Shown one piece after another: positions 2,260 to 37,399 of a stretch of 64,000 nt of DNA (the stretch's first letter is position 1; every line of letters starts with the position of its first letter). Source of the DNA: a virus (taxonomy: Duplodnaviria > Caudoviricetes). The position numbers were made by a program, and so were the translations under genes. The DNA is taken from IMG/VR virus record IMGVR_UViG_3300027917_004314, one strand, 5' to 3'. The notes beneath the pieces were generated by a model that worked only from the letters and a program-made list of their open reading frames with translations, made no database searches and was not told the DNA's origin.

Positions 2260-2286
2260 ATTTTTTTGAAAACGGAGATACACGAA

Positions 2287-4863
2287 ATGCCTTCAAAATA
2301 TGATCGTGAGTATGCTCGTGATATTCCACTACCAGACTGGCTAAAGGAATTTGCCGATAGCAACTTAGATAAAAGTGGCACCACCATCGAGGATATTAAA
2401 AACCTTTTCCACACGAAGAATGAACTAGACTCTGTAGAGGCTAGGGTAGAAGAACTTCGAGAAAGGGTCGGATTAGACGCCATAGAAAAAACAGCTGCAA
2501 AACAAAAAGAACTAATTCCTGGAGGGTTTGCAGAAGGCCAGCCTGATGAGAAATATGATAAAGAGCAGCTTGGTAAAGGTATAGGCGTCGAAATGGAGCA
2601 CACGCCGGATTGGGAAGTTGCAAAAGAGATAACAAAAGATCATCTAGAAGAGTCCGAAGATTTTAAAGATGGTGAGGGTGGAAAATATTACGACAAGCTC
2701 GATAAGGCAGAAGAAGAGATTAAGAAAGAAGTTGATAAAAAGAAGGCTTTGCGTATACAGCGGCTGATTACTTTGGCGGATTATTTAGACGAAGAGGGAT
2801 GTGTTAATGGTGCTAAATATATAGACACCTTAATACGTAAGCTTGCCGACATGGAGCGTCTGCCAATCATGGCTGATCCCATATTATGGTCGGACGAACA
2901 ATTATTAGAAGTTGTTAATACTCCTGGTCTTAGTGAAATGGCAGCCAAGAAGCAGGTACCACCAAGCACTGCAGAAGGAAAGGAAAAAAGTTTACTGCAA
3001 GCAGTCGTGGATGAGATTAATAAAAGAAATATTGCTCAGGGCTTAAAACCGCCGAATGTAGAAGCATGGAGAGAACGAGGATATTGGCTGCTTTATGGTC
3101 TAAATGGACAGTTATTGGGTATTTATAATAATGATAGTAAGGCTCAGATGGCCAAATCTAAATTAGCTGATATGTTTGCTGCGGGACAAAGTTTTAATAT
3201 GATAGGCGGTGAATATATGCCCTATCTTATACAGTATATCGCAGAAAAGGCTCTTAGTGCTGTTGCACCTGAAGGGGATGATGATAAGCGAGAGGCTTTT
3301 TTCTTTTCTGCGGAAGCTGCAGATATCCATGATGATGCCGCAGAGAAAGCACGTGAACTTTTAACTGATCCAGGACTCGCGCGCAAAAGAAAGGAGCATG
3401 CTGAAAAGCAAATACAAATTGTAAAAACGCCTTGGCATTTTGAGGAATATATAGACCCCAAAGCGATTCCAGAAGGTCAGATACCTACTGATGAAAATGC
3501 AGACGCTGCTTTCGAGAGTACTAAAAAGTTTAATTTGGACCCCCAAAATAATGAGCTGCCAATAGTAAGACCAAATATACATGACACTCAAAGACCAGGG
3601 AGAAAAGAGTTTGTTAAAGATTATGAACGTGAAATTGTTCAGAAATATCGCAGAAAAGAGAAGGGTCTTCCTACAAGCAAAGAGGAAAGTACGGATGATG
3701 GTTTCGAGTTGTCTTGTCGTCATGGATTTAGGCTATCCAAAAGGGCAATTAAATGGTATGCTCCAAAAGAAACAAGTCCTGTGGTTGGGCCATGGCAGAG
3801 TTATAAGTTGCCGCCAGGTGCTGGCACAACGCTTGAACCTATTTCTGAAGAAGAAATGTGGAGAAGGGAACAGGCTAAAAAGCCTCAAGTGGTAGAACCA
3901 GAGCCAAGAGAAACGAAAGAGCCTGAGGCAGAACCAGAGGAAGAGCCGGAAAGCACCATGTCATCGTGGTATTTAATGGCAGCATTTGGACAAGGACTTG
4001 GTTGGTTTAAGGAGAAACAGCATGCAGAAGATGCCAAGTGGGCGGTTGTTAACCAGTTTTCTGATCTCGATATAGATAAGTCGGGCAAAAGCGTATTGTT
4101 CAATTGTTTTAAGGATTATCTACAAAATCTGTGGAATCGCCAAATAACAAACTCCCACGTAAAAACGGAGTTAATAAATTTTGTTAACAGCACTACCAAC
4201 CAGGTATACATTGATGAAAGGGATTTAGCAGGACAAAAAGCGGTACAAATTTATGAAATTGTGGAGCACGCATTTGCACCACGTGGTGGGATATATGGAG
4301 AAGATGAACACCCAACTGGAGATTATATCGATTTAGCCGTGATTGCACTTAAAGGATTAGGCAGCCAATACGAACGAACACATCCTCTTTATCAAGTGCC
4401 AGCGGATGCTGAAGATGCTATAAGCGCAAGTGCTGAAAATGGCGAGAGAGTTATACAGGAAGTAATTAGGTGGGCTGAAAGAAGAGCCGGTCATTCTGCG
4501 ACCGCGCCATCTTATACTGATGATAATGTAATAAAAGCATTCTATTTGTCAAAACGTGCAAAAGAGAAGAGCATTTTCGAGCAATTCCCGAAGCTAGAAA
4601 CCTTTGTCCGAAATGTTTGTCGTTCTCGCGGCGGCTATGTAGAACTTCCGGCCATACAAACAATGATTAGAAATGAAAGACCAGAGAACATAGATGTACA
4701 TAATAAGGAACTAGTTGAGTTTATCAAAAAGTGTCTAAAAGAAAATAAACAAGAAGTTCAAGACGATAACACACACGATGGCGAGTTTGTATCTGAAATA
4801 AGGATGTATGATGATGATGGAAACAGAACTGTCTTTTACGAGCCACCTAGCGATATTATATAG
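2287..4863 (+). CDS. Internal head protein with DUF5661-like domain, helical-hairpin tag and two FxLSKRA motifs
   Basis: GGAG RBS before ATG 2287; GIGVEMEH...AKEITKDHL...YYDKL resembles DUF5661; LITLADYLDEEG tag at 2764; FRLSKRA 3727, FYLSKRA 4540. Confidence 0.7.
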   Translation: MPSKYDREYARDIPLPDWLKEFADSNLDKSGTTIEDIKNLFHTKNELDSVEARVEELRERVGLDAIEKTAAKQKELIPGGFAEGQPDEKYDKEQLGKGIGVEMEHTPDWEVAKEITKDHLEESEDFKDGEGGKYYDKLDKAEEEIKKEVDKKKALRIQRLITLADYLDEEGCVNGAKYIDTLIRKLADMERLPIMADPILWSDEQLLEVVNTPGLSEMAAKKQVPPSTAEGKEKSLLQAVVDEINKRNIAQGLKPPNVEAWRERGYWLLYGLNGQLLGIYNNDSKAQMAKSKLADMFAAGQSFNMIGGEYMPYLIQYIAEKALSAVAPEGDDDKREAFFFSAEAADIHDDAAEKARELLTDPGLARKRKEHAEKQIQIVKTPWHFEEYIDPKAIPEGQIPTDENADAAFESTKKFNLDPQNNELPIVRPNIHDTQRPGRKEFVKDYEREIVQKYRRKEKGLPTSKEESTDDGFELSCRHGFRLSKRAIKWYAPKETSPVVGPWQSYKLPPGAGTTLEPISEEEMWRREQAKKPQVVEPEPRETKEPEAEPEEEPESTMSSWYLMAAFGQGLGWFKEKQHAEDAKWAVVNQFSDLDIDKSGKSVLFNCFKDYLQNLWNRQITNSHVKTELINFVNSTTNQVYIDERDLAGQKAVQIYEIVEHAFAPRGGIYGEDEHPTGDYIDLAVIALKGLGSQYERTHPLYQVPADAEDAISASAENGERVIQEVIRWAERRAGHSATAPSYTDDNVIKAFYLSKRAKEKSIFEQFPKLETFVRNVCRSRGGYVELPAIQTMIRNERPENIDVHNKELVEFIKKCLKENKQEVQDDNTHDGEFVSEIRMYDDDGNRTVFYEPPSDII

Positions 4864-4865
4864 TC

Positions 4866-6719
4866 ATGGCATTTAAACAAAAAAGAAACGCTTTAGACGA
4901 CTGGAAACCAGAAAATAGTTTTGATTCTCTTAAGAGAGAATTTATGAAGGTCGATCCAGTTACTTTTGCAGAGACTTTCCTCACTCTTGATGGAAAGCCT
5001 TTTCGTATTACGGGCAACGGATGGAAATTCATAGCGGATATATATAGACATATCTCTGTGGTTTCAATGTCGAATGAAGGTAAGCCGGTCGTAATAGTGA
5101 AAGGCAGACAGGTCGGCGCGACAACCATGGCGTCTGCCATGGAATTGCACATGGTGGCAAGCGGAACATACGGAAGAAACGGACAACCTCCTGTTAGGGT
5201 AATGCATGCGTTTCCACAGTTGGAAATGATGCACGGCTTTGCCAAAGATAAGCTGGAAAAAATGATTTTAGAATCAATACAAATTCCAGATTTTGATGAC
5301 AAACATAGTCCAGGCAAAATGAAACCCTTCATTAATGCTCAGAAGGATTCGGCTAGAGACGCCACTGATGCACTGCGATATAAACAATTCAAGTATGGAA
5401 ATACTTTGTGGTGCGAATCAATAGGTAACGAGGGGACGAGAGTTATAGGTAGAACTTTTGACGTTTGTTTCTTCGACGAAGTCCAAGATATGAGCGAGGT
5501 GGCAATAGCCAAGACAATCAAGTGCCTTACTCGCGCTCAACACGGACCACAGCCTGGTGGGGTGCAAGTATTTTTTGGTACCCCAAGACAAAAGGGAACT
5601 TTATTCCATAGAATGTGGGAAGACTCAGATCAGCGCAGATATTATTTAAAATGTGCTGATTGCAAAAATTATTTCCTATTGTATACTCCTGGCTCTGACA
5701 AATGGGAAGAAGAAATTTGGTTATATGAAAATATAGTAAAATGTCCCAGCTGCGGCCATGAACAAGATAAAGTTATGGCGATTGAACATGGCAAATGGCT
5801 CCCTACGCCGGGCAAAGAAGATTCTAACTACATAGGTTTTCATTTTAATCAGCTATTTATTCCAGAATTTACTAAAGAAGTGATAGTAAAGGAAAAGCCT
5901 GAGCATAACACTAGAAACTCAGAAATGATTTTCAACAATGAAGTGCTCGGGGAGTTTCATTCTGGTGCCGGCCTTCCCATCACATTTGAAGAAATTTATC
6001 GGATGTGTAAAGATCAAGACCGTTCAGTACCAAAATTCATACCGAAGGGGGAAAGGCTTTCATACCTCGGTATGGACTGGGGAGGTAAACCAGACATAGA
6101 CAACGTTAAGAGAGGTCAATCTTTTTCTTGTGGCGTTGTGTTGACCGTAGACCATGACGAGAGATATCTCGTAGAATTCGGAGAAAAACTGAAACGATTG
6201 GATCGTGAAAGTAAGATGAGTTTTGTTGATGAAATGTTTCGCATATACGGCGTTAAGAACGCTATGGGCGATATTGGCTTTGCAGAAGACATTACTAACG
6301 ACCTCAAAATGAAGTATGGCGAGAAATATAAAAGTGTTAGGAGTTCCGGGATGGTTTCTGGTGGTGTAAAATATAATAGAGATGAATTAGAAATAGTGGT
6401 AGACAAAGATAAAATTATTGGAGAAGTCTTTGAATTGCTGAGGAGAGGCAGAATTAGATTTCCTTGGGCAAGTTATGAAAAAATTGCGTGGCTGATTAGA
6501 CATTGTTGCTCTATGGAAAGCAAAATCGTCACTAGACAGGGTCAGCCGCATCAGACATATATGAAGGGCAAAGAACAAAACGACGGACTTATGGCACTGA
6601 TTTACGCTTATTTGGCTTACAAATTTGATAAAACTCGTGGTTTTAAAGTAAATCCGAACGTGCCCAGCAGCACTATATTTCCAAAACCAGTTCTTGCATA
6701 TATACCAAAAAATATATAG
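4866..6719 (+). CDS. terL: Terminase large subunit
   Basis: Walker A-like VKGRQVGATT, Walker B FFDEVQD, GTP coupling motif, CxxC..CxxC zinc site, RNase H-like GMDWGG nuclease motif. Confidence 0.93.
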   Translation: MAFKQKRNALDDWKPENSFDSLKREFMKVDPVTFAETFLTLDGKPFRITGNGWKFIADIYRHISVVSMSNEGKPVVIVKGRQVGATTMASAMELHMVASGTYGRNGQPPVRVMHAFPQLEMMHGFAKDKLEKMILESIQIPDFDDKHSPGKMKPFINAQKDSARDATDALRYKQFKYGNTLWCESIGNEGTRVIGRTFDVCFFDEVQDMSEVAIAKTIKCLTRAQHGPQPGGVQVFFGTPRQKGTLFHRMWEDSDQRRYYLKCADCKNYFLLYTPGSDKWEEEIWLYENIVKCPSCGHEQDKVMAIEHGKWLPTPGKEDSNYIGFHFNQLFIPEFTKEVIVKEKPEHNTRNSEMIFNNEVLGEFHSGAGLPITFEEIYRMCKDQDRSVPKFIPKGERLSYLGMDWGGKPDIDNVKRGQSFSCGVVLTVDHDERYLVEFGEKLKRLDRESKMSFVDEMFRIYGVKNAMGDIGFAEDITNDLKMKYGEKYKSVRSSGMVSGGVKYNRDELEIVVDKDKIIGEVFELLRRGRIRFPWASYEKIAWLIRHCCSMESKIVTRQGQPHQTYMKGKEQNDGLMALIYAYLAYKFDKTRGFKVNPNVPSSTIFPKPVLAYIPKNI

Positions 6720-6728
6720 AGGTGACTA

Positions 6729-8750: not shown

Positions 8751-8800
8751 ATGGTAGCAATTTTGAATATTATGAGGAAAAGGGATATTAAGGGTGAAAT

Positions 8801-9070
8801 ATGAAAAAGGAAGATGTAAATTTCAAAAAAGATTGTCAGAAATATCATGACTCAGTGTGTACGCTACTGAAACAAGGAAAAGTAAAAGAATCTAATGAGT
8901 TAATTGATAAAATAAGCAATTATCTTCGCCAATGGGAAGATTTTCAAAGGTCAGTATATATAAAAGTTAATGCTCTTAAATCTCTATATGCTGCTGTTGT
9001 TTTTGAACAAAGAAAAGCCGTTGAGAAAATTATAAAAGCTGGAGGCGACAGGAATAATGACCAAGAGTAA
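8801..9070 (+). CDS. Hypothetical protein
   Basis: 89-aa ORF with RBS-like AAGGGTG, overlaps next start. Confidence 0.6.
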   Translation: MKKEDVNFKKDCQKYHDSVCTLLKQGKVKESNELIDKISNYLRQWEDFQRSVYIKVNALKSLYAAVVFEQRKAVEKIIKAGGDRNNDQE

Positions 9071-10853: not shown

Positions 10854-10860
10854 GGGCTAT

Positions 10861-13800
10861 ATGGCTACAGTAGAGTATAAGTGTTCGTGGTGCAAAAATC
10901 CCATATCTGTAGAGGAAGACGAGAATGCCAACACTGACATTAAAGCCAGTGGTGTGTGCAGAGAGTGTGAGCTAAAACAATTAAAGGAGACAACCATTCC
11001 CATGACTAAGAGAAAGGTTTTTAGGTTTAGGGAAAGCGGCGTAAACGAATTGGCAGAAAAACTTGAAAATCGTTTGTCGACAATGATCGCTCGCGTTAGA
11101 GAGTTGGAATCAGAAAATGTAGCAGACGATTCGCTAGCGCCAGTGGCTTTAATGCGTTTGACTGAAATTAAAGATCCAGATGAACTTTTGAAAACATATG
11201 ATAGAGATGATATTATTATAGAGGAAAAGCTAGACGGATGGAAGGTTCAGGCCATCAAAAAGGACGGCGAGGTAAAGATATATAGTCGTAGAGGAGAAGA
11301 AAAGACAGAAAACTTTCCTGATATAATAAGTGCGCTTGGCAACCTGCCTGATGGCACGCTGGTAGAAGGCGAACTTGTATATTGGCACAACGGAAAACAA
11401 GATGTAGGAAAGGTTACATCGTTGGCTGGGAGTAAACCTGAAACATCGCTAGAAAAAGCTAAAGAGTTGCCCGGCACAATAAAAATACATTTGTATGACG
11501 TTCTATGGCATAAAGGAAAGAATGTTTCCAAAGAGTCTTTTTCTAAAAGAAGACAAACCTTGCAATCATGTGTTAAAACAAGCGATAGGGCACAACTAAC
11601 GAAACAATATCCATTTTCGGATTGGCAAAAGGCAATGAACGCTGCTGTTAAGAGTGGCGGTGAAGGAATAGTATTGAAAATCAAAGAAAAGGGCTATCAG
11701 TACAAACCAAAGGGACAGCAGGAACCAAAACCTAAAAATGTTATGTATAAATACAAGGGTGGTGTTGGGAAAAGCGAATCTGATGACTACGTTGTATATG
11801 ATTATGAAATAACAGAAAAGGGGAAACTTAAAGCCTTTTTTGGCCAGTATTATGGTGGCAAACTATACCATATTAGTGAGATTAGCAACTTTTCCAAGGA
11901 AAATGAAGAGACTATTAAAAATAAATTGAAAAAGGGTAATTTTGTAATTGAAATAGGATTTCAAGAGCGGCAGCCGGGAGGGCTTAGGCACCAAAAATTT
12001 GAGAGATTTAGAGATGATAAAAAGCCAAAAGACGCAACTATGCATGAATTTCATGTTGAAAACATAGATGAATTCAAAATGGCAGAAAAGAAAGCGTCAT
12101 TTTTATTGTCAAAAAGGGCAACTTATGCAGACGAATGGCTTAAAATTCTAGAGCAAGCTGTCATGCAACTATATCCCTCCGGCCTGCCACAAATTTCTGG
12201 TGTTGATTTTCCTGCCATATATTACTTGGTATCGAGGCTTGAATCAAACGATAGGAACGATGTAATTGGTGATGCTGGTAATTCATTTGGTAGAACTCAA
12301 GTACATGGCCCATATTTTATGAGATATCTTGCACAGGATCCCAGGATCAAGCATCTCACGGGTTTGTCTTCACAAGATTTAAAACAGATGGCTGACACGT
12401 GGATGCATACTAAAAGAAATCTCAGTGGTTTGTGGCAACAGGTACCAGTTGACCAAGACACGGCCAGGGCCTATATGGCCGATAAAAAGTTGGTGATCCA
12501 TAGAAAAGAAGGCACAACAATAAGGCGAAGTCCAACCAGTGGGCCGGGCATTATTAAGTTGCGTGGCGACAAATTTGTTGGATATATAATTAATTTGGAT
12601 AAGTTAAGACACATGGGACTTACGATTACCGACGGTGTGTTAAGCAAACTTCATCAAATTTGTAACACTTTCATAACTTGGGGCGTAGCTAATAGTGCTA
12701 TAGCTAAGCTATTTATTGCTCAGAAGAATCCTGTGGCACATGCAAAATTCCATAGGTCTTTTAACAGTAGAAATATAGGCAGAGACCCAGTTTTGCAATC
12801 CGTTATAGATAGTATTTCGCAAAAAGATTTTGCAAACAAGGTTAAGATAGTGACGTCTGATGTAGCCCGTTATGGATATGATACTACAGCGCCAGGAGCA
12901 TTTAATATATATCAGCTTATTTTTATAGCAAACGCTAGTGGTGCGGGTAGGGTAAGAGACTTTTTGCGCAATAGAAGGGCATTTGCTGCCGGTAACCTCC
13001 ATTACATCCAGAGTAGCAGATTTAAACGAGCCATGAGGTGGATTCAAAGAGACCCGAAAATGCCCGCCAATGTACAATACATTGCGCGACTCTTATTGAC
13101 TGATTTACCTCCGCAGGGTGGTATGGCCGGATTTGTTTCGCGAAAGTTCTCAAATATAGATTTTCCTCTAAGCAAAAAGGTCTATGCCAGCGAAGCAGAG
13201 GAAGAGTTTGAAAAAGAAGAAACCACTGATCCGGCAAAGCCATGGTTTATAATAGAACTAGAGGATGAATTTTTTACAAAGTTGCGCCAGCTAATAGGCG
13301 AAGATGCCACGGTGCTAATTATAGTAAGAAAAAAATTATCTGAACGTGTTGGCAAAGAATTAGAGGAATATGAGCTTATCCCGCTTTATAGGCAAGACAT
13401 TATAAAATACATTACGGAAAATGTAGAAGATATTAAGTCTAAATTGTTGAATCCAGATTACAATCCGTTTGTCGAATATCTGTTAAGAAATTGGGATATT
13501 AAGCTTATAGCTCCTAAGTCTGTCGCAATGCCTACGGAACTAGGGCCAACCGATAGAGACGATGAATTTTTTGAAGAAGAGACCAAACCAGAAGCAGTCC
13601 CGTGGCGGCCAAAATTGGGGAACCAATTGATTTCAAAGAGGGCTGATTATGTAAAACCGGGCACTTTATATTTCCCTGGACAATACGCTGATGCAATTAG
13701 ATCTGGCAAACGCAGGATGACCATAAGGCCAAATGATGTGCCTGTCCAAATTGACGAGGTAATAAGATGTATTACTTACTCTGGTGGAGTTATTTGTGAC

Positions 13801-16800
13801 GTCAAAATAGTTGCCAAAAATGTAATGAGTATTAATCGCATAGGTAAAGCTTATGGCAGTCGTATGGCTAAATCATTGGCACAAAAATTTGGTCCTAAGA
13901 AAAGATTTATAGTTATTAAGTTTGAGCCTGTAGATAACCTTAATGCTGCAGATGACGATGACGACAATAATGAAGAGAAAATGTCTGAAGTACTAATAGA
14001 CAAGGATAAAAAACTTACAAGAGGCCAAATTAAAACGCACTATTCGAAACCAGCGATTCGTAAAAAAATAATGTCGCGCATCAAAGACAACCCTGTGATA
14101 GTATATATCGGTACTGGTACCAACGAAAAGATCTTGAAACGCAATCATGATGGTAAGGAAATTATAATAACAAATGATGACCCGCAAAAAGACGAAGACT
14201 CTAACAATTATTTCTATTGGGTTAAAAGGAGAGTGTTGTCGTTTCACCAAGTGTTTGGCACTAAAACCAATTTGGGCTTCGTTGATTTAGACATACATGG
14301 AGACTTTCCTCTATCTAAAGCTAAAAAATATGCGAACGAAATCAGCAAGGCCATTAAAAATAAGTATAATGTGGGTACTACCATTTTTCAAAGCGGTGGT
14401 AGTGGTTTACATGTAGAGTTTAAACTCAGCAGCGAAATGTCTATAGACAAGCTTCGCGGCGAGCTTAAGAAAATGTTGGATGCCATTAACGAAGATTGGG
14501 GTGATGTGACAACTGGTGTTGTAAAAGGTAGTGGGATGAGATCTGATGTGTCTACCCTACATAATAAGGGTAGCATTAGAGTGCCGGGTTCTTTTGGTGA
14601 AAGTCACGGAAACGTGAAAAAATCAGTAGGTTCTGAACAAGATACTGCTGAGAACAATTATAACAATGGCGGCTTCGGACAATTATATACGCAAGAAATA
14701 ACCGAGCCGTTTCCAGATCCGCTAAAAGAGGTAGCCCCAATGCAGGGTGAGGGGCCAGTTGATAGTTATATAGGATATAACACCGTAGAGGACGGAAAAT
14801 TTGCCTCAGCTAAGAAAAAAGTACTTATGTTGGTGGCACCAAAAGAATTCTATGAGCCTGAGTATTTTATCCCTCGCAGAATTTTTGCGGAAAAATATGG
14901 TTTTGATGTGTCAGTAGTTTCTAGTGGCCATAGCGCTGTTGGTGCTCAAGGAACTGAAATTGCAGTAGTTCCAATATCTGAAATAGATGTGGCCGACTTT
15001 GATTCTTTCTTTGTGGTTGGCGGCAAAGGGATGGTGGAGTTTTCCAAAGACAAAGATGCACAAAAATTGCTGAAAACTTTTGTTCGTAAGAAAAAACCTG
15101 TAGCCATGATTTGCCATGGTCCACTTCTTGCTGTTGAAACTGGTATTATAAAGGGCAGACAAGTTACTGGGTGGCCAGATATTGTGGGCAAAGTACGCAG
15201 AGCTAAGGGTACCTGGACTGGGATGCCGGTAGAAAGAGACGGGCTGCTGTTTACTGCAATTGGCCCAGAAGACGCAGAAAACTTATCTATAGTCTTATCA
15301 GAATTTCTCAAAGGAGAAAAAACACTCGTTCCTGTGAAAGAGAAATTTCTTGATTGGAAAGAGGCCTCGCAGGTAATAAATAGTATTTGGAAATTTGCTG
15401 CTGGCCTAAGTGACGAAGAAGAGCTGGCCAGATTGATGAGAGAACAGCAAGAGGAAATAGAAGAAGAGGAAGAAGGGGAAGAAGAGAAAGAGGTCATGAT
15501 TCCTGAGGATAAGGAAGCGCTCATAGAAATGCAGCATCGAGAGGAGTTGCTCAGGAGACAACAGCAAATAGAAAGATCACGCGCTGAAAGGGAACGTCGT
15601 GAAGAACAGGAAATGGAAAGGCGTCGAGAATTGCCCGAAGAATATGAGGAAGAGGAACCCGAGCTAGAAAAACCCAGAGCAGTAAAGTTTAAGGATATCG
15701 TACAAATTGAGAAAGAAGAGGAAGAACCGCTGGCCGAAGAAGAGGGCCTGGAACCATCGGAAGAATTTAGCCGAATGTTATCCTCTGTAAAAGAAGAATT
15801 GTCTAGTATACTAGAAGATATTGGGGATTTTGGTGAAGACCCCAATATGGCAGAACCAGAAGAAGATGAAGAAGAAGATTACGAGTCAACAATGGAGAAG
15901 GCGCCAGAAACTATTTTTGGAATTAAACTAAAAAGTCCAACCGACAAATCTGGCCAAGTACTTGACCGATGGTTTGAGAAAAACGAAATTGTCATGCCAG
16001 AAATGTCCGAGGGGGCCAGGAAGCTATTTACAATAAAAAACATGAAAGATGGTGCTTCTTTAACGAAACTGTTTAGCGATCCTTTGGCATGGGATATCCT
16101 GCACGAAGAACCCCACCTGTTGCAAAATTGGATTTTGCCAGCTCTGATCGTGGGTATAGGACAAAGATGGTTCAACAACAATGGTAGTAGACCACAACTT
16201 GGTACTAAAAAATTTAAAAATGTTGGTAGAACGCCTTTTGGCATGTTTGATGAAGATGACCTAGCCCTTCTCAAAAAAGGTGCAACAATAGAGGAGCTGC
16301 CCAGTGCCAGGAAGTATATACGCATGATAAATCAGTTGGTGACCAAATATGCTAACTATTATTTCTCGTATGGGTATAGGAGAAGTAAAAGAAATCCACA
16401 AGGTGCTTTACCTATAGGTGGTTATATATATAAGGCCTTAGGAAGGGCTATGACTAAAGAAATTGCTGAAGTTAAAGGTTTCAAGGAAATAAGGTTTCCT
16501 GTTTGTGCTGTGTGTAAGGCAAAACAAAAGAACGAGAAAATGATTCTTCGAAGCATGGTTAAAGTCGCTGACAAACCAGCCAGATGGGAGTGTGAGACTT
16601 GCAAAAGAGAGCATGAAGCAAATAGTTTCTTAATTGATGAATTAGAACAAAGACTTAGGACAATAGAAGACAGTGCCGGTGGGCTAAAAACTAGAATAGA
16701 ACAAGATAAGGTTGCTGTAAAAGATTTGGAAGACGAAGAGGCAATCGAACGACTTACCAATAAAATTGAAGATCGGACCCAAAGGTTAACCTCGTTTATT

Positions 16801-19017
16801 ATAGAGTCTGATTCAATCAAGAAAAAACGTGACGAGTTAAATAATACGCAGAAAATATTAAGCGGACAATTAGCAGTTCCATATTGGCATACTTGGTGCC
16901 CGAACACAACTTGTCCCGGCCGCAAAGTGCCTCTCACTTCAATAAATTGGGACGCAGATGTGTGGAAAAGTGATGCCGAGGGTGCTTTAGCGGCTAGGTT
17001 ATATGAAAGATATGGTATTAAAAGACCTGGCATGATGGAGGCCGTTGATGAGCCAACTGCGAAGCCAATAAAAAGAAAAATCTCTTCGCAGCACATTCCG
17101 CCAGAATGGCTACTAGATGTAGAGTTTATATGTCCACATGATGGTATTAAATTTACGCTAAGGGATAGTAAATATAAGGGGCACAGAAATCTAGGCGGGT
17201 TTTTGTGGGAGCCATATCGAAGGTTGGAGTGGGCTACTATGCATGAAGCTGCCCCCAAAGAAGTAGAAGTGGCGATTGCTATGGCCGGCGCCGAAGAGAA
17301 AATGGATGCTGAGTTGTCAAAAGTACTTTTCACACATTTGTCCTTAATTGGCAGAACAGTTTTCTCGCGTGAAAAAAGGAAAAAAGATCAACAATTTGTA
17401 GAGTGGTTAACAGGTCAGCTCAAGTTACATAAGTACAACCTGGAAAAAGTTAAGCAAATTCCTATCTATAGCTCCAAGCAGAGAGAGAAAGTGTTGTATG
17501 ATATAATAAAAGATTCTTCTAATCTAGATCCTTTGTCTTTCGTGGCTTGGCTTACGGAGACTGCCATAGCTGGCAAGTTTGTTCAAGATAGAGAGAAAGA
17601 TATTGGCCAGGAAAACTTTGTACTAAAGACAACGAGAAATCAGCGTAGAGACGAGATATATATACCTATTTTACAAAATTGGGTTGACAAAATGCTTTCT
17701 GAAGAAAACGGATTTGAGAATTATAGAATAGAGGACATGTTAACCAACCATCTTGAAGATGGACTCTACGGTGATGGACCAGGAACTTTCTTTGTTGCAA
17801 AGATTGAAGATGGTGTGTTGCCACATAGGGCAACCAAGAAGCACGAAGGAGTGTTTGGCTTTAGATGCAATCTTATGCTTTCTGTGAAGTTTCCTGCAAA
17901 ACCAAAATATAGTGTGCCAATACATAAAGGCATTGAGGGATTTGAAGAAGAATATTTAGATGAGTTAGAACAAAAAGAAAGAATACGAGCAAGTAGGACT
18001 GCAGAGTCAGGTTTGTATCCTCGTATGCTGAGAGTTATTGGCGTGTGGCAGCTGTCACCAGGACAAGTTGAATCTGTTCTTAAACAAGCCAATGGCGAGG
18101 CGATGCTGAAAGGCGAAGCATGCATAGCGAAGGGTCCAGGTGGTACCGGCCTGCATACGTTTGCTTTAAACAACCAAGATAAAAATATAGTCGGCGATAT
18201 GGTTGGGCACGATTTTTATGTTGCTACACTAGATAAAGACGAGACATCTTTGTCTGTAGGAGATTATGTTCTGGTACAAGCTTTACTTATGCCAGGAGAT
18301 TACTGGTGGGCGCCAATTGCTATGGTCCAAAATCTAAGAAAAGAGAGCGACACAGCTAGAAATATCTTTGGTAGACTTGGTGCTCTAATATCTGACGAAG
18401 TGTCACCAGAAGAAGATAGAAGACTGCTGCAAGAATTTGTGCAGGATGTTAAGGAATATGGTGATGACCCGAAAGAAATGGAAATGATCGTTGGAGATTT
18501 AATTGATAGGTTTGAGGCAGCAAGAAAAAAGAAAAGGTCGTCGTTTATTCTTAGCGTTAGAGAAGCAAAAGATCCTCTATCAAAATATAAACAAAAACGA
18601 GAGTTTGATGAGACTCCTGAACCCGAAGGCGAAGTCTCTAAAGAGAATAAACATCGATTTGTGATTCAAAGACACGTAGCTGAAAAAGTTGGTGAACATT
18701 GGGATCTACGACTAGAAAACAATGAAGGTGCCTTATCGTCTTGGTCTATACCAAAACATAAGTTTCCTAAAGATAAAGAGAAACTGTTGGCCGTCAAAAC
18801 GGAAGACCATCCAATATCTTATATGAAATTTAAAGGAGAGATTCCGGAGGGCTACGGTGCTGGTAAAGTAGAAATTCATGATAGCGGCACATTTGAGGAA
18901 GTAGAATGGAACGACTCGAAAATAGTTTTTAAGCTTAAAGGAGAAAAAGAGAAAGGGACATATAAGTTATTTAGAACCGATGGGAAAAATTGGATGATCA
19001 TGGAACATTACGGATAG
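10861..19017 (+). CDS. ligD: 2718-aa polyprotein: ATP-dependent DNA ligase + lysozyme/SLT-like + ASCH + LigD primase-polymerase + DJ-1/PfpI + unknown Zn block + LigD 3'-phosphoesterase
   Basis: Ligase EEKLDGW (11221), EGEL, YDVL, EGIVLK, OB fold; LES..GD..S.G..Q and NASGAGRV (SLT-like); YADAIRSGKRRMTIR (ASCH); DLD, SGGSGLH (AEP); ICHG (PfpI Cys 15112); FVIQRH..HWDLRLE..EDHP..GYGAG (PE). Confidence 0.9.
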   Translation: MATVEYKCSWCKNPISVEEDENANTDIKASGVCRECELKQLKETTIPMTKRKVFRFRESGVNELAEKLENRLSTMIARVRELESENVADDSLAPVALMRLTEIKDPDELLKTYDRDDIIIEEKLDGWKVQAIKKDGEVKIYSRRGEEKTENFPDIISALGNLPDGTLVEGELVYWHNGKQDVGKVTSLAGSKPETSLEKAKELPGTIKIHLYDVLWHKGKNVSKESFSKRRQTLQSCVKTSDRAQLTKQYPFSDWQKAMNAAVKSGGEGIVLKIKEKGYQYKPKGQQEPKPKNVMYKYKGGVGKSESDDYVVYDYEITEKGKLKAFFGQYYGGKLYHISEISNFSKENEETIKNKLKKGNFVIEIGFQERQPGGLRHQKFERFRDDKKPKDATMHEFHVENIDEFKMAEKKASFLLSKRATYADEWLKILEQAVMQLYPSGLPQISGVDFPAIYYLVSRLESNDRNDVIGDAGNSFGRTQVHGPYFMRYLAQDPRIKHLTGLSSQDLKQMADTWMHTKRNLSGLWQQVPVDQDTARAYMADKKLVIHRKEGTTIRRSPTSGPGIIKLRGDKFVGYIINLDKLRHMGLTITDGVLSKLHQICNTFITWGVANSAIAKLFIAQKNPVAHAKFHRSFNSRNIGRDPVLQSVIDSISQKDFANKVKIVTSDVARYGYDTTAPGAFNIYQLIFIANASGAGRVRDFLRNRRAFAAGNLHYIQSSRFKRAMRWIQRDPKMPANVQYIARLLLTDLPPQGGMAGFVSRKFSNIDFPLSKKVYASEAEEEFEKEETTDPAKPWFIIELEDEFFTKLRQLIGEDATVLIIVRKKLSERVGKELEEYELIPLYRQDIIKYITENVEDIKSKLLNPDYNPFVEYLLRNWDIKLIAPKSVAMPTELGPTDRDDEFFEEETKPEAVPWRPKLGNQLISKRADYVKPGTLYFPGQYADAIRSGKRRMTIRPNDVPVQIDEVIRCITYSGGVICDVKIVAKNVMSINRIGKAYGSRMAKSLAQKFGPKKRFIVIKFEPVDNLNAADDDDDNNEEKMSEVLIDKDKKLTRGQIKTHYSKPAIRKKIMSRIKDNPVIVYIGTGTNEKILKRNHDGKEIIITNDDPQKDEDSNNYFYWVKRRVLSFHQVFGTKTNLGFVDLDIHGDFPLSKAKKYANEISKAIKNKYNVGTTIFQSGGSGLHVEFKLSSEMSIDKLRGELKKMLDAINEDWGDVTTGVVKGSGMRSDVSTLHNKGSIRVPGSFGESHGNVKKSVGSEQDTAENNYNNGGFGQLYTQEITEPFPDPLKEVAPMQGEGPVDSYIGYNTVEDGKFASAKKKVLMLVAPKEFYEPEYFIPRRIFAEKYGFDVSVVSSGHSAVGAQGTEIAVVPISEIDVADFDSFFVVGGKGMVEFSKDKDAQKLLKTFVRKKKPVAMICHGPLLAVETGIIKGRQVTGWPDIVGKVRRAKGTWTGMPVERDGLLFTAIGPEDAENLSIVLSEFLKGEKTLVPVKEKFLDWKEASQVINSIWKFAAGLSDEEELARLMREQQEEIEEEEEGEEEKEVMIPEDKEALIEMQHREELLRRQQQIERSRAERERREEQEMERRRELPEEYEEEEPELEKPRAVKFKDIVQIEKEEEEPLAEEEGLEPSEEFSRMLSSVKEELSSILEDIGDFGEDPNMAEPEEDEEEDYESTMEKAPETIFGIKLKSPTDKSGQVLDRWFEKNEIVMPEMSEGARKLFTIKNMKDGASLTKLFSDPLAWDILHEEPHLLQNWILPALIVGIGQRWFNNNGSRPQLGTKKFKNVGRTPFGMFDEDDLALLKKGATIEELPSARKYIRMINQLVTKYANYYFSYGYRRSKRNPQGALPIGGYIYKALGRAMTKEIAEVKGFKEIRFPVCAVCKAKQKNEKMILRSMVKVADKPARWECETCKREHEANSFLIDELEQRLRTIEDSAGGLKTRIEQDKVAVKDLEDEEAIERLTNKIEDRTQRLTSFIIESDSIKKKRDELNNTQKILSGQLAVPYWHTWCPNTTCPGRKVPLTSINWDADVWKSDAEGALAARLYERYGIKRPGMMEAVDEPTAKPIKRKISSQHIPPEWLLDVEFICPHDGIKFTLRDSKYKGHRNLGGFLWEPYRRLEWATMHEAAPKEVEVAIAMAGAEEKMDAELSKVLFTHLSLIGRTVFSREKRKKDQQFVEWLTGQLKLHKYNLEKVKQIPIYSSKQREKVLYDIIKDSSNLDPLSFVAWLTETAIAGKFVQDREKDIGQENFVLKTTRNQRRDEIYIPILQNWVDKMLSEENGFENYRIEDMLTNHLEDGLYGDGPGTFFVAKIEDGVLPHRATKKHEGVFGFRCNLMLSVKFPAKPKYSVPIHKGIEGFEEEYLDELEQKERIRASRTAESGLYPRMLRVIGVWQLSPGQVESVLKQANGEAMLKGEACIAKGPGGTGLHTFALNNQDKNIVGDMVGHDFYVATLDKDETSLSVGDYVLVQALLMPGDYWWAPIAMVQNLRKESDTARNIFGRLGALISDEVSPEEDRRLLQEFVQDVKEYGDDPKEMEMIVGDLIDRFEAARKKKRSSFILSVREAKDPLSKYKQKREFDETPEPEGEVSKENKHRFVIQRHVAEKVGEHWDLRLENNEGALSSWSIPKHKFPKDKEKLLAVKTEDHPISYMKFKGEIPEGYGAGKVEIHDSGTFEEVEWNDSKIVFKLKGEKEKGTYKLFRTDGKNWMIMEHYG

Positions 19018-19044
19018 CGGATGAATAGAAAAATCCAGGTCTTC

Positions 19045-19054
19045 CTACTAATAA
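19045..19054 (+). promoter_or_regulatory. Variant of putative phage promoter motif (CTACTAATAA)
   Basis: One mismatch to CTATYAATAA; intergenic, 45 nt before ATG 19100. Confidence 0.4.
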
Positions 19055-19099
19055 AGAAATATCAAATTGCATACTTAGCGATATTGGAGACTTCGAATT

Positions 19100-19399
19100 A
19101 TGGGTGTCGCAGAATTTATTGAGAACAAATTTATTGGCAAAATCCTCTGCATTTTCTTAGGTGAACATGCAGAAACCATCACATATGATCAGGCGTGGGC
19201 TGCAAATAAGGAATTTTTCAAAGGAATTGTACTCGACGTTACCGAAGGTGTTTTAACTCTCGATGTCCAAAACATAGGTGCGATTTATATAAATTGTGAA
19301 CAAATACAATCTTTTTGGGAAGAACCCTTTGATTACCACAGGGCAGTGCACACATCTATAACACGCAGATTAGTTGGAGCTAGGCGCAAGGACATATAA
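19100..19399 (+). CDS. Small beta-barrel protein (Sm/SH3-like possible)
   Basis: GGAG RBS; pattern KGIVLDV..GVLTL....GAIYINCEQI resembles an Sm-like fold. Confidence 0.55.
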   Translation: MGVAEFIENKFIGKILCIFLGEHAETITYDQAWAANKEFFKGIVLDVTEGVLTLDVQNIGAIYINCEQIQSFWEEPFDYHRAVHTSITRRLVGARRKDI

Positions 19400-19410
19400 C
19401 GGGAGCAAAT

Positions 19411-20064
19411 ATGAATGATAGTATCACCAAAATAGCCAAAATTGTTAAAAGAAAAGGCAAATGGTGTGTAATTGGGCATAAAAAAACAAAGGGGAAATAT
19501 CGCAATTTTGGTTGTTATGACTCAAAGGAAGAGGCAAAAAAGCGACTTGGGCAGATTTATTTGTTTAAATTAAAAAAAGCCGAGTTGTTGAAAACTCTAA
19601 TTCAGGTCTCCGACCAATTAGATAAGCGCGGCATCATCCATATTGCCGATGCACTTACCGGCTGTATTGAATCTATTGCTTCCGAAGATTCAGAAAACCA
19701 GTCTGTTATTAAGCTCGGCAAAATTATTTGTCTTTTAAAAAAGAAAGGGGAAAATGAACTAGCAGAAGCCGTTGATAATTTACTACCAGACGTCTTAAAG
19801 CTCGAATGTGTTGACTGTGATATAGAAATTCCCAAGTCCAGGAAAAGGATCTCTGCTCTAAGAGCTTACAACATAGTACAAACGCTTCATAGAAAATATG
19901 TTGAAGGTATGATAGACGAAAATTGTTTTGAGTATTCCAAAATGGAAGAACTAAGAGCCATGCTTAAAGAAGGGTTTTCATTTCCTGCGCCGCCATCATA
20001 TAATGCATTGCCAGAAGATGTCGACAATTGGTGGGATCATTTTTTAAAACGAGGTGACAAATAA
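19411..20064 (+). CDS. Internal head protein, basic N-terminal domain plus helical-hairpin tags
   Basis: KGKWCVIG..NFGCYDSKEEAKKRL N-domain; LIQVSDQLDKRG and LLKKKGENELAEAVD hairpin-like segments. Confidence 0.7.
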   Translation: MNDSITKIAKIVKRKGKWCVIGHKKTKGKYRNFGCYDSKEEAKKRLGQIYLFKLKKAELLKTLIQVSDQLDKRGIIHIADALTGCIESIASEDSENQSVIKLGKIICLLKKKGENELAEAVDNLLPDVLKLECVDCDIEIPKSRKRISALRAYNIVQTLHRKYVEGMIDENCFEYSKMEELRAMLKEGFSFPAPPSYNALPEDVDNWWDHFLKRGDK

Positions 20065-20328
20065 ATGGTAATTAACAAACTCTCCGATAAGGCAAAAGTG
20101 GCGCTGCTTGGAAAACTAGATGCCATTATAGAAAATGATCCTCAAATCGAGGCCGATGATTCTATGGTTCTGTTGGCAGAGTTGGCGGATAGATTAGACG
20201 CCGAAGGTTTTTGTGAAGCAGCTAACGAGATAGATGCACTTATCGAACAAAAGAATAAAAAACTTAAAAGACCTGGGCGAATGAAAGCTAAAGAAATAAG
20301 ACAAAAATTCGCCAAGAATAAAAAGTAA
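20065..20328 (+). CDS. Small protein consisting mainly of the helical-hairpin tag
   Basis: LAELADRLDAEGFCEAANEIDALI; TAAATG coupling to neighbours. Confidence 0.75.
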   Translation: MVINKLSDKAKVALLGKLDAIIENDPQIEADDSMVLLAELADRLDAEGFCEAANEIDALIEQKNKKLKRPGRMKAKEIRQKFAKNKK

Positions 20329-20685
20329 ATGGGAAACAATTTTAGGTTATCCAACAGAATAGAAAAAACAGTGCAGACGCCAGCTCAGCGTACAGCTGAG
20401 TCATTGTTCAAAATTATTCAATTTATGTTTTATAGAGTGCCCGATAAGAATAAAGCGAAATTTCTGTCAAGAGTTAGAGGAAAAATAGTTAAATTAAATC
20501 CGGGTGCTTTGGGAACAAAACCGTTGCCGCCAACAGCAGCAATAGGTCAGGCAATCGGGCTGGCTAAAAATCTATTATATGGCCTTAACCCTAATTTTAT
20601 TCAAGAAGTTTTATCGGAGTTGGTAAAACTGTTATCTACAACTCCGCAACCAATAAAGCCTCTACCGCCGAGTGCTGGGGCATAA
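20329..20685 (+). CDS. Hypothetical protein with N-terminal FRLSNRI motif
   Basis: 118-aa ORF, TAAATG coupling. Confidence 0.7.
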   Translation: MGNNFRLSNRIEKTVQTPAQRTAESLFKIIQFMFYRVPDKNKAKFLSRVRGKIVKLNPGALGTKPLPPTAAIGQAIGLAKNLLYGLNPNFIQEVLSELVKLLSTTPQPIKPLPPSAGA

Positions 20686-20689
20686 ATAT

Positions 20690-22681
20690 ATGTTTTATAT
20701 CAGTAAAAGAGCTGCCTGGATGCGAAGCATATGGATTAATCCAGACGATGGTTCCACGATACAAGTAGATGGCAAGACCCATGACGATGTGTTTTTTGAA
20801 CATATCGATCAGTTTGGAGATGCTGTACCTGAAGACATCAAAGAAATAATTAAGAGAAGGGAAGAAAAACCAGAGCACTCAGAAAAAGCTTACGAGATTT
20901 TGGATGGTCTAAAAGAGAGTTGGCCCAGAATTACAATATTTGGCAGTGAAGTTGGCCTAGACATGCCAGATAAATCTAATCTATTGTTGCACTTTGCACA
21001 ACAAACACTTATGAAAAGTGGGCTTAGATATGGATCCATGACAATCAACTTTGGTGTCGGCGGCTTTATCGAAGATGTTTCGTATGATGATTTTATACGA
21101 GCTGACAGGTGGTCTGATATTTTAAAGCCATATAGGTCGTTTATCACTGCGTTTGCATTGTCAAAGCGTGCCCAGGAACCGATAATTCCTACTCCGCATA
21201 TTGTGATCGAACCATACGAGCCTGCAATCGCAAAGGCACTTACTAGAATACCAAACCATTTAAAAATGAACGTCACAAAAGTAGTAGTTCACAGTGGTGG
21301 CGGTTCTGGTCATATGGGGCATGTCGAAATGGGCCCTGGGAAAGATCCAAGAGAGATACATATCTTTAAAGATAGGATCCGAGAAAAGGTGCGTCAAATG
21401 TTCGGTACTATACAACCTACAGCACAGCAGCTAGAACAAGCAACAGAACGCGCCTTGATTGAAACCATCATACACGAAACGGGACATATAGGACCGACAA
21501 GAACCCAAGAACAGATTTTACAAGGTCCGTTCTTTGGAGAACCAGAGGCCGAAGCACTCGTCAGACAGCAGCTGCCGACAATTGCATCGTTTGAAGATGC
21601 ATTGGTGAAGGCATCCCTTGATTTGGAAGAGATTAGAGAGAAGCTATTACCAAATGCTCCTATTGGAGAGCCTAACTTGCACTTTGTGGCTCAATCCATG
21701 AACCAAAAAAAATATTATCTTGTCAAGAGTGGAGTCCGTCTACTCACAGGTGGCGATATAAAACCCGCCGCAATCGAAATTAAAGAGGCAGAACAATTTA
21801 ATAATATCGCTTCTCGAAACATCAAAGTTTCTAAAATTATTGGAGTTATTGCGGCAGAAGTAGGAGTTCATCCATATAACGATTTGAATTTTGTGGTTGC
21901 TTTGGCAAAATGGCAAGATTGCAACGGTTTAGAGCCTACTGGCAAATTAGATGCTGGTACTTTATCCAAGCTTGGTAAAAATCATAGTCACTTAGAGACC
22001 CCTAAAAATTTTGGTGTTGTGGTTCCTCAACACCTGTATCGTGGCGCAATAATTGAGAATATGAAACAACTAGAAGCGTTGCGTGATAGGTTTGGTGTAC
22101 AAAGGGTTGTTTCCCTGCACAACCACCCTGATATAACTAGGATGTGTCACATCGCTGGTTTAGAACATGTTGTAGCACCTTTAGAAACAGGATCGCCAAG
22201 TGACTTTGGTAGAAAAATTCTTGGAAAATCCATTTCTAGCTTTTTAAAAGAAAAACCAACATATATTCATTGTTTTTATGGTCAAGACCGCACAGGAGGC
22301 GTTGTAGCGCGCTTCAGGACGGAAACTGGATGGCCATGTGAAGCAGCCTATGCAGAAGCAAAAGCTTATGGTTTTAAAGACATGTTTGCCGATCTTATCG
22401 ATTGGTTTTCTGAGCCATGCGGCAAGCCACCAGTTGATACCGATAAGATAAGGAAATTATTGAAGAATAAATCTCCTTATAAGAATCCAGAAACTTCACA
22501 ACCTCTAGAACAGTCGTTATTGGAACCCCACCTAAATCCAGTTCCTAATGATATGCCATTTGGCAATCCATATCAAGATGCTAGTGAACATGTCTATGTT
22601 ACGTGGGCTGATACTATTAACAGCGTGGCGCCAACAGGGATTTTAAGCATTCCTGTGCCATCAGGGAGTACGGGCATATGA
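20690..22681 (+). CDS. Multidomain protein: zincin-like HExxH domain + peptidoglycan-binding-like + protein tyrosine/dual-specificity phosphatase
   Basis: IIHETGH (21473); KWQDCNGLEPTGKLD (PG_binding_1-like); HCFYGQDRTG = CX5R P-loop (22268); FYISKRA at start, FALSKRA at 21152. Confidence 0.8.
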   Translation: MFYISKRAAWMRSIWINPDDGSTIQVDGKTHDDVFFEHIDQFGDAVPEDIKEIIKRREEKPEHSEKAYEILDGLKESWPRITIFGSEVGLDMPDKSNLLLHFAQQTLMKSGLRYGSMTINFGVGGFIEDVSYDDFIRADRWSDILKPYRSFITAFALSKRAQEPIIPTPHIVIEPYEPAIAKALTRIPNHLKMNVTKVVVHSGGGSGHMGHVEMGPGKDPREIHIFKDRIREKVRQMFGTIQPTAQQLEQATERALIETIIHETGHIGPTRTQEQILQGPFFGEPEAEALVRQQLPTIASFEDALVKASLDLEEIREKLLPNAPIGEPNLHFVAQSMNQKKYYLVKSGVRLLTGGDIKPAAIEIKEAEQFNNIASRNIKVSKIIGVIAAEVGVHPYNDLNFVVALAKWQDCNGLEPTGKLDAGTLSKLGKNHSHLETPKNFGVVVPQHLYRGAIIENMKQLEALRDRFGVQRVVSLHNHPDITRMCHIAGLEHVVAPLETGSPSDFGRKILGKSISSFLKEKPTYIHCFYGQDRTGGVVARFRTETGWPCEAAYAEAKAYGFKDMFADLIDWFSEPCGKPPVDTDKIRKLLKNKSPYKNPETSQPLEQSLLEPHLNPVPNDMPFGNPYQDASEHVYVTWADTINSVAPTGILSIPVPSGSTGI

Positions 22682-36367: not shown

Positions 36368-37399
36368 ATGTCGTTATTTAGTACATATGGAAAACAAGGC
36401 GAGCTGAATGCGAGTTCCGTTAGAGATGCTCTTGCGAACATTGTGAAGTACGCTAGCGTACTTGACGATTTGGCCCCTGCAAACCAGGGTCTAGCGCAAC
36501 AGCCATCCTATACGGATGATCAGCGTAACGAGCTTATTAAGCGCGCTTTGATGACGCAAGAAGGCAAGATTGCTCTTGGCCAGGCAATGGCCAATCCGAT
36601 CCGCAGAAACTTGGATTATCAAGGAGTGGGCCGGAGAGTTTTGGTTGTCGACCCGTTGCCCCAAGGTGCTCTTCCTGTATACGACCGCGATATCGATGTC
36701 GCAGCTACCGTTGTTTCTAGCAATGGTTCTGCTCCAGAGAGCCGCGTGTTCGGTGACAGGGTGACTGTACCTGAGTTTGAGGTTGTTTCTAATCCTACTG
36801 TGCGTATTGCTGAGGTAAGAAGGCGTCGTTTTAACGTGATCGACCGTGCTCAGCAGAAGGCAAGGCAAGAGATCCAGGCACAAGAAGATGCTAACATTTT
36901 CGCGTCCCTCGATTTCGCAGCCGATGCAACGCTTGGTGGAGAGAACACTGCCCAGGATATTGCTGATGCGGGACTTCTAAAGCGTGACCTTTCCGAGATT
37001 AAGGTTCAGGTAGACCGTTGGGACCTTGTAACTACTAAGTTCCTCATGAATATCATTGAATTTAATGACATTCTGAATTGGGCAACTGGTGGTGGCCAAG
37101 GATCTAATGGCGGCGAGGTTGATCCTGTTACGATGAGAGAGATCCTTCAGACTGGTCTATATGCCCACATCTGGGGTGCAGACATCATCGTTTCTAAGAT
37201 CGTCCCAGTCGGAACCGTTTTCGGAACCGCCGATCCAGAGTTCGTAGGTGTTATGCCTGTCCGTCAGGACATCGAGGTACTACCTGCCGATGAGCCCAAG
37301 CAGCTAAAGCTTGGTTGGGTTATCTCTGAGATCATCGGAATCGGCATCGTCAACCCACGCGGTTGCGCTGTTGGTCGTAAGTCTGTTGCTGTTGGCTAA
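36368..37399 (+). CDS. Major capsid protein (HK97 fold)
   Basis: Strong AGGAGG RBS; 343 aa; follows decoration gene; RRNLDYQG..DPLPQGALPVYD, FNVIDRAQ..IQAQED, GWVISEIIGIGIVNP pattern; strong terminator after. Confidence 0.88.
   Translation: MSLFSTYGKQGELNASSVRDALANIVKYASVLDDLAPANQGLAQQPSYTDDQRNELIKRALMTQEGKIALGQAMANPIRRNLDYQGVGRRVLVVDPLPQGALPVYDRDIDVAATVVSSNGSAPESRVFGDRVTVPEFEVVSNPTVRIAEVRRRRFNVIDRAQQKARQEIQAQEDANIFASLDFAADATLGGENTAQDIADAGLLKRDLSEIKVQVDRWDLVTTKFLMNIIEFNDILNWATGGGQGSNGGEVDPVTMREILQTGLYAHIWGADIIVSKIVPVGTVFGTADPEFVGVMPVRQDIEVLPADEPKQLKLGWVISEIIGIGIVNPRGCAVGRKSVAVG

Follow-up and report, generated by a model that had tools for sequence, protein, structure and literature searches.

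What does one short peptide do at the borders of otherwise unrelated modules in the head genes of a large uncultured phage? The question is raised by a stretch of 64,000 nucleotides from the IMG/VR record IMGVR_UViG_3300027917_004314 (Duplodnaviria; Caudoviricetes), hereafter the window, which is a + strand late-gene block. An original prediction, made from the letters of the window alone, had pointed to a heptapeptide recurring between positions 3703 and 21172 that was thought to mark domain boundaries and to be a polyprotein cleavage or packaging signal. We find that the F-x-[L/I]-S-K-R-A heptapeptide is a real signal in the head-gene cluster, far above chance. Comparison with relatives supports it well as a conserved junction and leader signal, and a role as a cleavage site is probable.

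A recurrent heptapeptide in head-module proteins

Each of the ten peptides that the original prediction had placed in this region is an exact translation at its position and lies within a long open reading frame (ORF) of the + strand, the first eight (3703 to 20341) in frame 0 and those at 20693 and 21152 in frame 1. The canonical copies are found in an 865-amino acid (aa) protein encoded ahead of the large terminase gene, in a 2718-aa polyprotein and in a 663-aa protein with a zincin metallopeptidase fold and a phosphatase domain (Table 1). Comparison with shuffled sequences bore out the signal, since [LI]SKRA is observed six times against 0.039 expected from 2000 within-ORF shuffles, and the shorter SKRA six times in the window ORFs against 0.30 expected, again from 2000 within-ORF shuffles. 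These six copies are the only [LI]SKRA in the whole 161-kb source record of the window (53.5k aa of ORFs), and all are confined to 17.5 kb of head-module genes. A position-specific scoring matrix (PSSM) built solely from the relatives' sites returned the same six sites at 12 bits or more (approximately 1.0 expected) and five of them at 15 bits or more (0.17 expected). The description of the peptide as ending in K-x-A adds nothing to this, the conserved core being L/I-S-K-R-A.

As had been predicted, codons differ among the six copies, with Ser encoded by TCC, TCA or AGT, Arg by AGG, CGT or AGA, and Leu/Ile by CTA, TTG, ATT or ATC. At 57 distinct sites from the window and related loci, we counted 44 TCN and 13 AGY codons for Ser, and 31 AGR and 26 CGN codons for Arg. 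Both Ser and both Arg codon families are thus in free use, which points to selection on the peptide and not on the DNA. A DNA-level repeat is ruled out by this codon diversity, and a shared duplicated domain is ruled out because the modules on either side of the motif are unrelated.

The peptide was recovered at matching junctions in 16 IMG/VR loci found via the portal and in five found via the protease protein, namely after the ligase, before ASCH, before the phosphoesterase, in the pre-terminase protein and at the start of the zincin-phosphatase protein. In the database, 28/32 homologues of the polyprotein carry the motif, with one to five copies each, and most of the 31 zincin-phosphatase homologues either hold it internally or start with Met and, up to three residues later, the motif; about 20 members of this family begin in the latter way, as does the window protein (M-FYISKRA at 20690). 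Taken together, the 63 proteins contain 132 copies of [LI]SKR where 4.8 would be expected; 107 of the copies are internal, 23 lie no more than 20 residues from the N-terminus and 2 are close to the C-terminus. In 84 of the 107 internal copies an Ala follows, and Ser or Gly is frequent among the rest. Accordingly, the logo reads F (approximately 60%), x, L/I, S, K, R, A, preceded by a flank that is Lys-rich and otherwise variable, and conservation stops beyond the Ala. In the more distant megaphage G002 the motif takes the form x-P-[LI]-S-K-R-A, and in a 301-kb relative five copies share a single strand within 12.4 kb, the reversed-pattern control giving 0-1. Among cultured phages the closest is Bacillus phage G, whose capsid protein is 54% identical to that of the window and which has a homologue of the protease, gp19. 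Phage G shows no enrichment of the motif, whether over the first 40 kb or genome-wide, and its virion proteome (PMC12484599) therefore cannot settle cleavage.

The placement of the copies mostly agreed with the original prediction. One copy does lie directly before ASCH (residues 937-1024 of the polyprotein), FALSKRA stands just ahead of the zincin fold with its HETGH sequence, and both FYISKRA and FRLSNRI sit at protein N-termini. The copy described as lying between ligase and SLT indeed follows the ligase domain (Pfam, residues 103-286), whereas it is only by an Atlas lead that the next module is SLT-like, and this module gave no match in Pfam, PHROGs or PDB phmmer. Similarly, the copy before the phosphoesterase has the position claimed for it, but in the window it is degenerate (FILSVREA), the canonical form FKLSKRA being found in a relative. 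Three of the four weak variants (13162, 18544 and 20341) are, judged by relatives that are canonical at the same junctions, decayed copies.

Module borders, linkers and gene fission

The first 440 residues of the 663-aa protein were modelled with AlphaFold2 (AF2), which gave two confident domains; the predicted local distance difference test (pLDDT) score falls below 50 solely at residues 1-8 (MFYISKRA), at residues 151-165, which contain FALSKRA, and at the cut C-terminal end, these stretches flanking the two domains. In an all-against-all BLAST of the 63 homologues, 15.5% of homology-block ends lie within 15 residues of a motif against 3.8% at random (maximum 6.3% in 200 trials), a comparison that is descriptive because the high-scoring segment pairs are not independent. 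Searches of nine inter-motif modules against Pfam and PHROGs returned no assignments.

Across the relatives, the motif decays or vanishes where a module is lost or separately encoded. The phosphoesterase of G002 is a separate, motif-free ORF whose start falls right behind the motif position, in P0056 and P0052 the zincin domain starts without a motif, and loss of a downstream module leaves a degenerate remnant of the motif at the C-terminus. In one related locus (L017), the zincin protein starts M-FYLSKRA at the place of the internal second site of the window protein; the window therefore has an extra 150-aa module between two motifs.

This 150-aa module (20714-21151) gave weak gelsolin-like structural matches (Z approximately 5-6) and no sequence family. 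At 20329-22681 of the window, the 118-aa and zincin-phosphatase ORFs overlap in different frames, with a motif at this variable boundary; the corresponding ORFs are fused in frame in L021 (5718-7526) and separated by one in-frame stop in L017 (4703-7279). Lastly, P0003 and P0006, which come from different contigs, share a near-identical C-terminal tail, F-S-[IL]-S-x-R-[AS]-S-Y-stop, placed after the phosphoesterase in one and before it in the other.

Table 1. Heptapeptide copies, their carriers and neighbouring head genes, by position in the window
Feature	Position	Strand	Remarks
865-aa motif carrier, upstream of large terminase	2266..4863	+	
FELSCRH, weak variant	3703..3723	+	One residue upstream of FRLSKRA; <9 bits in PSSM scan; no support from relatives
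FRLSKRA, canonical	3727..3747	+	Residues 488-494 of 865-aa pre-terminase protein; PSSM 17.5 bits
FYLSKRA, canonical	4540..4560	+	Precedes conserved C-terminal ~100-aa module of 865-aa protein; PSSM 21.4 bits; FKLSKRA (L008) and FHISKRA (L016) at that junction
Large terminase	4866-6719	+	GpA_ATPase, 1.6e-16
Portal, 673 aa	6729-8750	+	
2718-aa polyvalent protein	10861..19017	+	Ligase, SLT-like lead, ASCH, Prim-Pol-like, DJ-1/PfpI, LigD phosphoesterase
FLLSKRA, canonical	12100..12120	+	Residues 414-420 of 2718-aa protein, after ligase module; canonical there in ~15/24 homologues
FPLSKKV, decayed copy	13162..13182	+	Relatives at junction: AFLSKRG or FLISKRA
QLISKRA, canonical	13624..13644	+	Residues 922-928 of 2718-aa protein, 9 aa before ASCH; GMLSKRA (L003) and AMISKRA (L004) there
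FILSVREA, decayed copy before LigD 3'-phosphoesterase	18544..18567	+	FKLSKRA there in L011; G002 phosphoesterase ORF begins right after this position
FRLSNRI, decayed N-terminal copy	20341..20361	+	Residue 5 of 118-aa ORF at 20329; L020 orthologue LPISKRA
663-aa carrier	20690..22681	+	N-terminal domain, zincin metallopeptidase fold (HETGH), PTP-type phosphatase
FYISKRA, N-terminal	20693..20713	+	Right behind ATG at 20690 of 663-aa zincin-phosphatase protein; family consensus MxFxLSKRA; pLDDT <50 at residues 1-8
FALSKRA	21152..21172	+	Residues 155-161 of 663-aa protein; linker between N-terminal domain and zincin; pLDDT <50 at residues 151-165; in family, 2-12 aa upstream of first zincin strand
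Folded domain, residues 166-433; first part (~166-299) zincin fold, candidate processing peptidase	21185..21988	+	
1385-aa protein, N-terminus matching head maturation protease	23802-27959	+	
Prohead protease domain, candidate processing peptidase	23919..24671	+	~Residues 40-290 of 1385-aa protein; phrog_18299 head maturation protease, 1e-9
Major capsid protein without canonical motif	36368..37399	+	phrog_2522, 1e-76; no PSSM hit; N-terminal alignment of 80 relatives

Proposed cleavage and loading, and the candidate enzymes

We think it fairly probable that F-x-[L/I]-S-K-R-[A/S/G] is the recognition and cleavage site of a phage-encoded endopeptidase, because the peptide is sharply bounded, exposed, of high information, repeated at module borders and dispensable when a module is encoded alone. 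Such an endopeptidase would cut the cargo polyproteins of the head module at exposed inter-domain linkers, and the products would be the ligase, wall-lytic, ASCH/Prim-Pol/DJ-1, phosphoesterase, zincin-phosphatase and other modules as separate virion-carried proteins. A motif right behind the initiator Met would be a short cleavable leader, like the capsid-targeting sequence of T4. A cut between the Arg and the Ala of K-R-A fits the abrupt end of conservation at the small residue, while a cut between the Lys and the Arg of [LI]-S-K-R-A would fit the aliphatic P3 position of gp21 and the assemblins. The proposal of a polyprotein cleavage or packaging signal thus stands as far as linkers, module borders, peptide-level selection, head-module restriction and the N-terminal leader are concerned, all of which fit, but the enzyme is ambiguous, as the zincin adjoins the motif, and the capsid protein has no motif.

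Two peptidases with intact catalytic residues are encoded close to the motif. The likeliest enzyme, to which we give somewhat less than an even chance, would be the serine protease with a T4-gp21/assemblin fold at the N-terminus of the 1385-aa protein (23802), acting inside the procapsid. It is favoured by precedent: in T4 and in the phiKZ/SPN3US group, ejection proteins have short consensus motifs at which the prohead protease cuts them, and the internal proteins of T4 have a short N-terminal targeting leader ending in a cleavage site (PMC5694885, PMC10052503). A T4-gp21-like protease domain is indeed encoded at 23802, where the original prediction had placed one. His147 and Ser198 are invariant across 40 homologues, and the top Foldseek hits of its AF2 model in the PDB are T4 gp21 (prob 0.98, E 3.5e-3) and herpesvirus proteases (assemblins), with E-values that are marginal and a family that is consistent; a PDB sequence search with the domain gave no match. 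Neither Peptidase_S78 nor ClpP was found in the 161-kb record, which is approximately 40% complete by CheckV. A long tail, acidic and with repeats, is joined to the protease domain in approximately 200 lineages.

An ELKRAG stretch after the protease domain was considered as a site and rejected, as it is not conserved. The tail of the protease protein (window 25200-26400, ORF 23802-27959) has two near-identical repeats of about 60 residues, Gly/Pro-rich and containing KQMEGQGMEPGNDGLHPGY, that lie approximately 160 residues apart and are followed by long acidic and Lys/Glu-rich low-complexity stretches.

A number of observations weigh against cleavage by the prohead protease, or against cleavage altogether. 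The PSSM found no canonical motif in the capsid protein, the putative scaffold, the portal or the protease protein, whereas in T4 and phiKZ the same motif serves structural proteins too. The polyprotein is kept without the motif in P0014, P0023, P0030 and the contig of L007/L021, and in the window's 2718-aa polyprotein the stretch from residue 929 to 2561 holds no site and some domain borders are unmarked. Some N-terminal copies end in M, D or P and not in a small residue, which suits binding over cutting. The zincin is a second peptidase equally near the motif, and the clade is uncultured, with cleavage at the motif predicted from comparison.

The restriction of the motif to cargo, and its absence from capsid protein, putative scaffold, portal and protease, favours a dedicated cargo protease such as the zincin. 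A serious rival reading, though one that we consider clearly less likely, is that the motif is a cleavage site for this cargo-embedded zincin (approximately residues 166-299 of the 663-aa protein), which would act both in cis and in trans, either ahead of packaging or following injection. A zincin cut before a hydrophobic residue (F or L) would probably leave FxLSKRA as the new N-terminus, matching the M-FxLSKRA starts of separately encoded modules, and a motif found in cargo only would suit a protease devoted to polyproteins whose site is long and specific. Structure comparison confirmed the zincin fold (VIA: Z 9.5 to zincin-like 3e11, with nearly all top rows zincins), and HExxH and the downstream Glu are invariant in the 31 homologues. 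The first zincin strand could be placed in 28 family members, and most of these have the motif, internal or N-terminal, 2-12 aa upstream of that strand; in the AF2 model, however, the motif beside the zincin is disordered and not docked. The L021 lineage has an intact HExxH zincin and no canonical motif, and in the window a PSSM scan found no motif in the stretch from zincin to phosphatase, C-terminal of the zincin. Clade genomes that lack the polyprotein also lack zincin and motif, but this joint absence is uninformative: in the megaphage records G001 and G003 of the clade the entire cargo set (motif, zincin and polyprotein) is missing together, and co-occurrence therefore does not discriminate between the two proteases. 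Iyer, Burroughs, Anand, de Souza and Aravind (2017; PMC5512222) predicted proteolytic release of the domains of polyvalent proteins, described the metallopeptidase as the hub domain of these proteins and proposed, in general terms, metallopeptidase domains as the processing enzymes; self-processing by such metallopeptidases is, however, itself a prediction.

Other enzymes were set aside. DJ-1/PfpI is unlikely to be the processing enzyme, as 11 motif-bearing homologues have no PF01965 in the polyprotein. Prp, the host protease that acts on L27-type sites, as in phage 80alpha, recognises an LNLQFF-type P-side sequence before Ala, like the leader of L27, and the residues upstream of our motif are variable and Lys-rich with no LNLQFF pattern. 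Omptin-type dibasic cleavage was set aside for a P-side mismatch and a host that is not identified.

The N-terminal copies are conserved across the family, which argues that they are not mere relics and that the peptide is also a handle for loading or enzyme binding. The peptide might be a dual tag that both carries chains into the procapsid and is cut there, an idea that we consider unlikely at present. The inactive prohead protease, fused to its scaffold-like tail of approximately 1100 aa, would capture FxLSKRA chains via its substrate groove, bring them into the assembling procapsid and cut the tag once activated. Were this true, the peptide alone would decide capsid entry and the modules behind it could be freely swapped, which would give megaphages a programmable code for cargo loading and add a new protease/site pair of high specificity.

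We hold it very unlikely that the peptide is never cut and serves as a short linear docking peptide for head loading or ejection, its partner being a capsid-interior, scaffold or portal component or DNA. The conserved N-terminal copies, which have no domain to separate, would suit docking, as would the variants in M, D or P, which would make poor cleavage sites, and the exposed, disordered segments in which the motif lies. Docking does not account for the dominance of internal copies (107/132), precisely at module borders, nor for up to five copies per protein, which are needless for loading one chain; moreover, the motif is dispensable for a module encoded alone, and conservation stops sharply at a small residue, as is typical of P1'. 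Most improbable of all would be a degron that host machinery recognises once the protein has been injected, or a site of modification, such as phosphorylation of the Ser or modification of the Lys or Arg. The conserved Ser followed by two basic residues and the PTP-type phosphatase within the same gene set would be in keeping with modification, but no kinase or transferase was identified here, and neither the association with module borders nor the disappearance of the motif when genes split would be explained.

Gene order and relation to known systems

The source record is approximately 40% complete and a polyprotein identical to the 2718-aa one of the window is also recorded on a 461-kb contig, and the source phage is thus probably a megaphage of at least 400 kb. 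The gene order in the window is large terminase, portal, a 598-aa ORF, the 2718-aa polyvalent protein, several small ORFs, the 663-aa protein, the 1385-aa protein, further large ORFs and the major capsid protein. Within the single 2718-aa ORF, ATP-dependent DNA ligase, ASCH, DJ-1/PfpI and LigD 3'-phosphoesterase all pass Pfam cut-offs, and the Prim-Pol match is weak.

The portals of relatives are 1000-1440 aa long (L007:997-4149, L010:6053-10381, L011:8117-12343, L014:8363-12625, L016:10001-13177) and align to the 673-aa portal of the window in two to three blocks, with breaks at window residues approximately 174, 238 and 356. This suggests that they hold one to two large insertions, possibly inteins, that are missing from the window portal. 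The major capsid protein has an N-terminal extension of approximately 48 aa (36368-36511) that is missing in phage G gp27 and conserved in 80 related contigs. An ELIKRA in the capsid protein was rejected as a copy of the motif, as it is part of a conserved structural helix (ELI[KS]RA) that phage G gp27 shares. The 161-kb record contains two copies of the hexapeptide PSYTDD, one at window positions 4510-4527, 10 aa upstream of FYLSKRA in the 865-aa protein, and one at 36506-36523, 9 aa upstream of ELIKRA in the N-terminal extension of the capsid protein; it is not conserved among relatives of the 865-aa protein.

Prohead proteases recognise short consensus sites, L/I-x-E for T4 gp21 and S/A/G-x-E for phiKZ gp175 and SPN3US gp245, and the capsid-targeting sequence of T4 is an N-terminal leader of approximately 10 aa that ends in a gp21 site. 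As in these systems, the locus described here has an assemblin-fold Ser-His protease in the head module, a short consensus peptide common to several unrelated head-module proteins, and large cargo with several sites. Unlike the gp21, gp175 and gp245 sites, the motif is longer, far more specific (5-7 fixed positions) and basic instead of acidic; it also differs in being missing from the capsid protein, putative scaffold and portal, in separating whole enzyme modules where the known systems trim propeptides, and in being known here from sequence. The likeness to the T4 leader lies in the peptide directly behind the initiator Met of separately encoded cargo, constant while the module behind it varies. 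In contrast to that leader, the peptide spans 5-8 residues and is also used internally, and its role in targeting is putative.

The carriers fall, at the level of their sequences, within the definition of polyvalent proteins (2-15 unrelated, mostly catalytic domains in one chain, encoded by a phage or plasmid next to virion or transfer genes), and they share with the examples described in PMC5512222 the many unrelated catalytic domains per chain, the location beside portal and virion genes, and the zincin companion. They differ from those examples in that a specific delimiter peptide marks their module borders; a term search of that paper found no junction or cleavage motif defined in it. The arrangement also resembles RNA-virus polyproteins (3C/NIa-type, with sites of approximately 7 residues), where a high-information site stands at module borders and the protease module is preceded by its own site. 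Unlike in those viruses, the protease here would have a zincin or assemblin fold, the virus is a DNA phage, and the products would be virion cargo and not a replication complex. A full-text literature search for the peptide found no relevant publication.

Polyvalent proteins are widespread in phages and conjugative elements, and the processing predicted for them in 2017 had, in the literature searched, no recognition site. A conserved delimiter makes this prediction directly testable and the mature products of giant ORFs predictable from sequence alone, and it explains how wall-acting and DNA-repair modules of one chain could reach different compartments. The motif could also yield a new sequence-specific protease and tag pair, and it shows the way in which megaphages shuffle enzyme cassettes while the junction in front of them stays constant.

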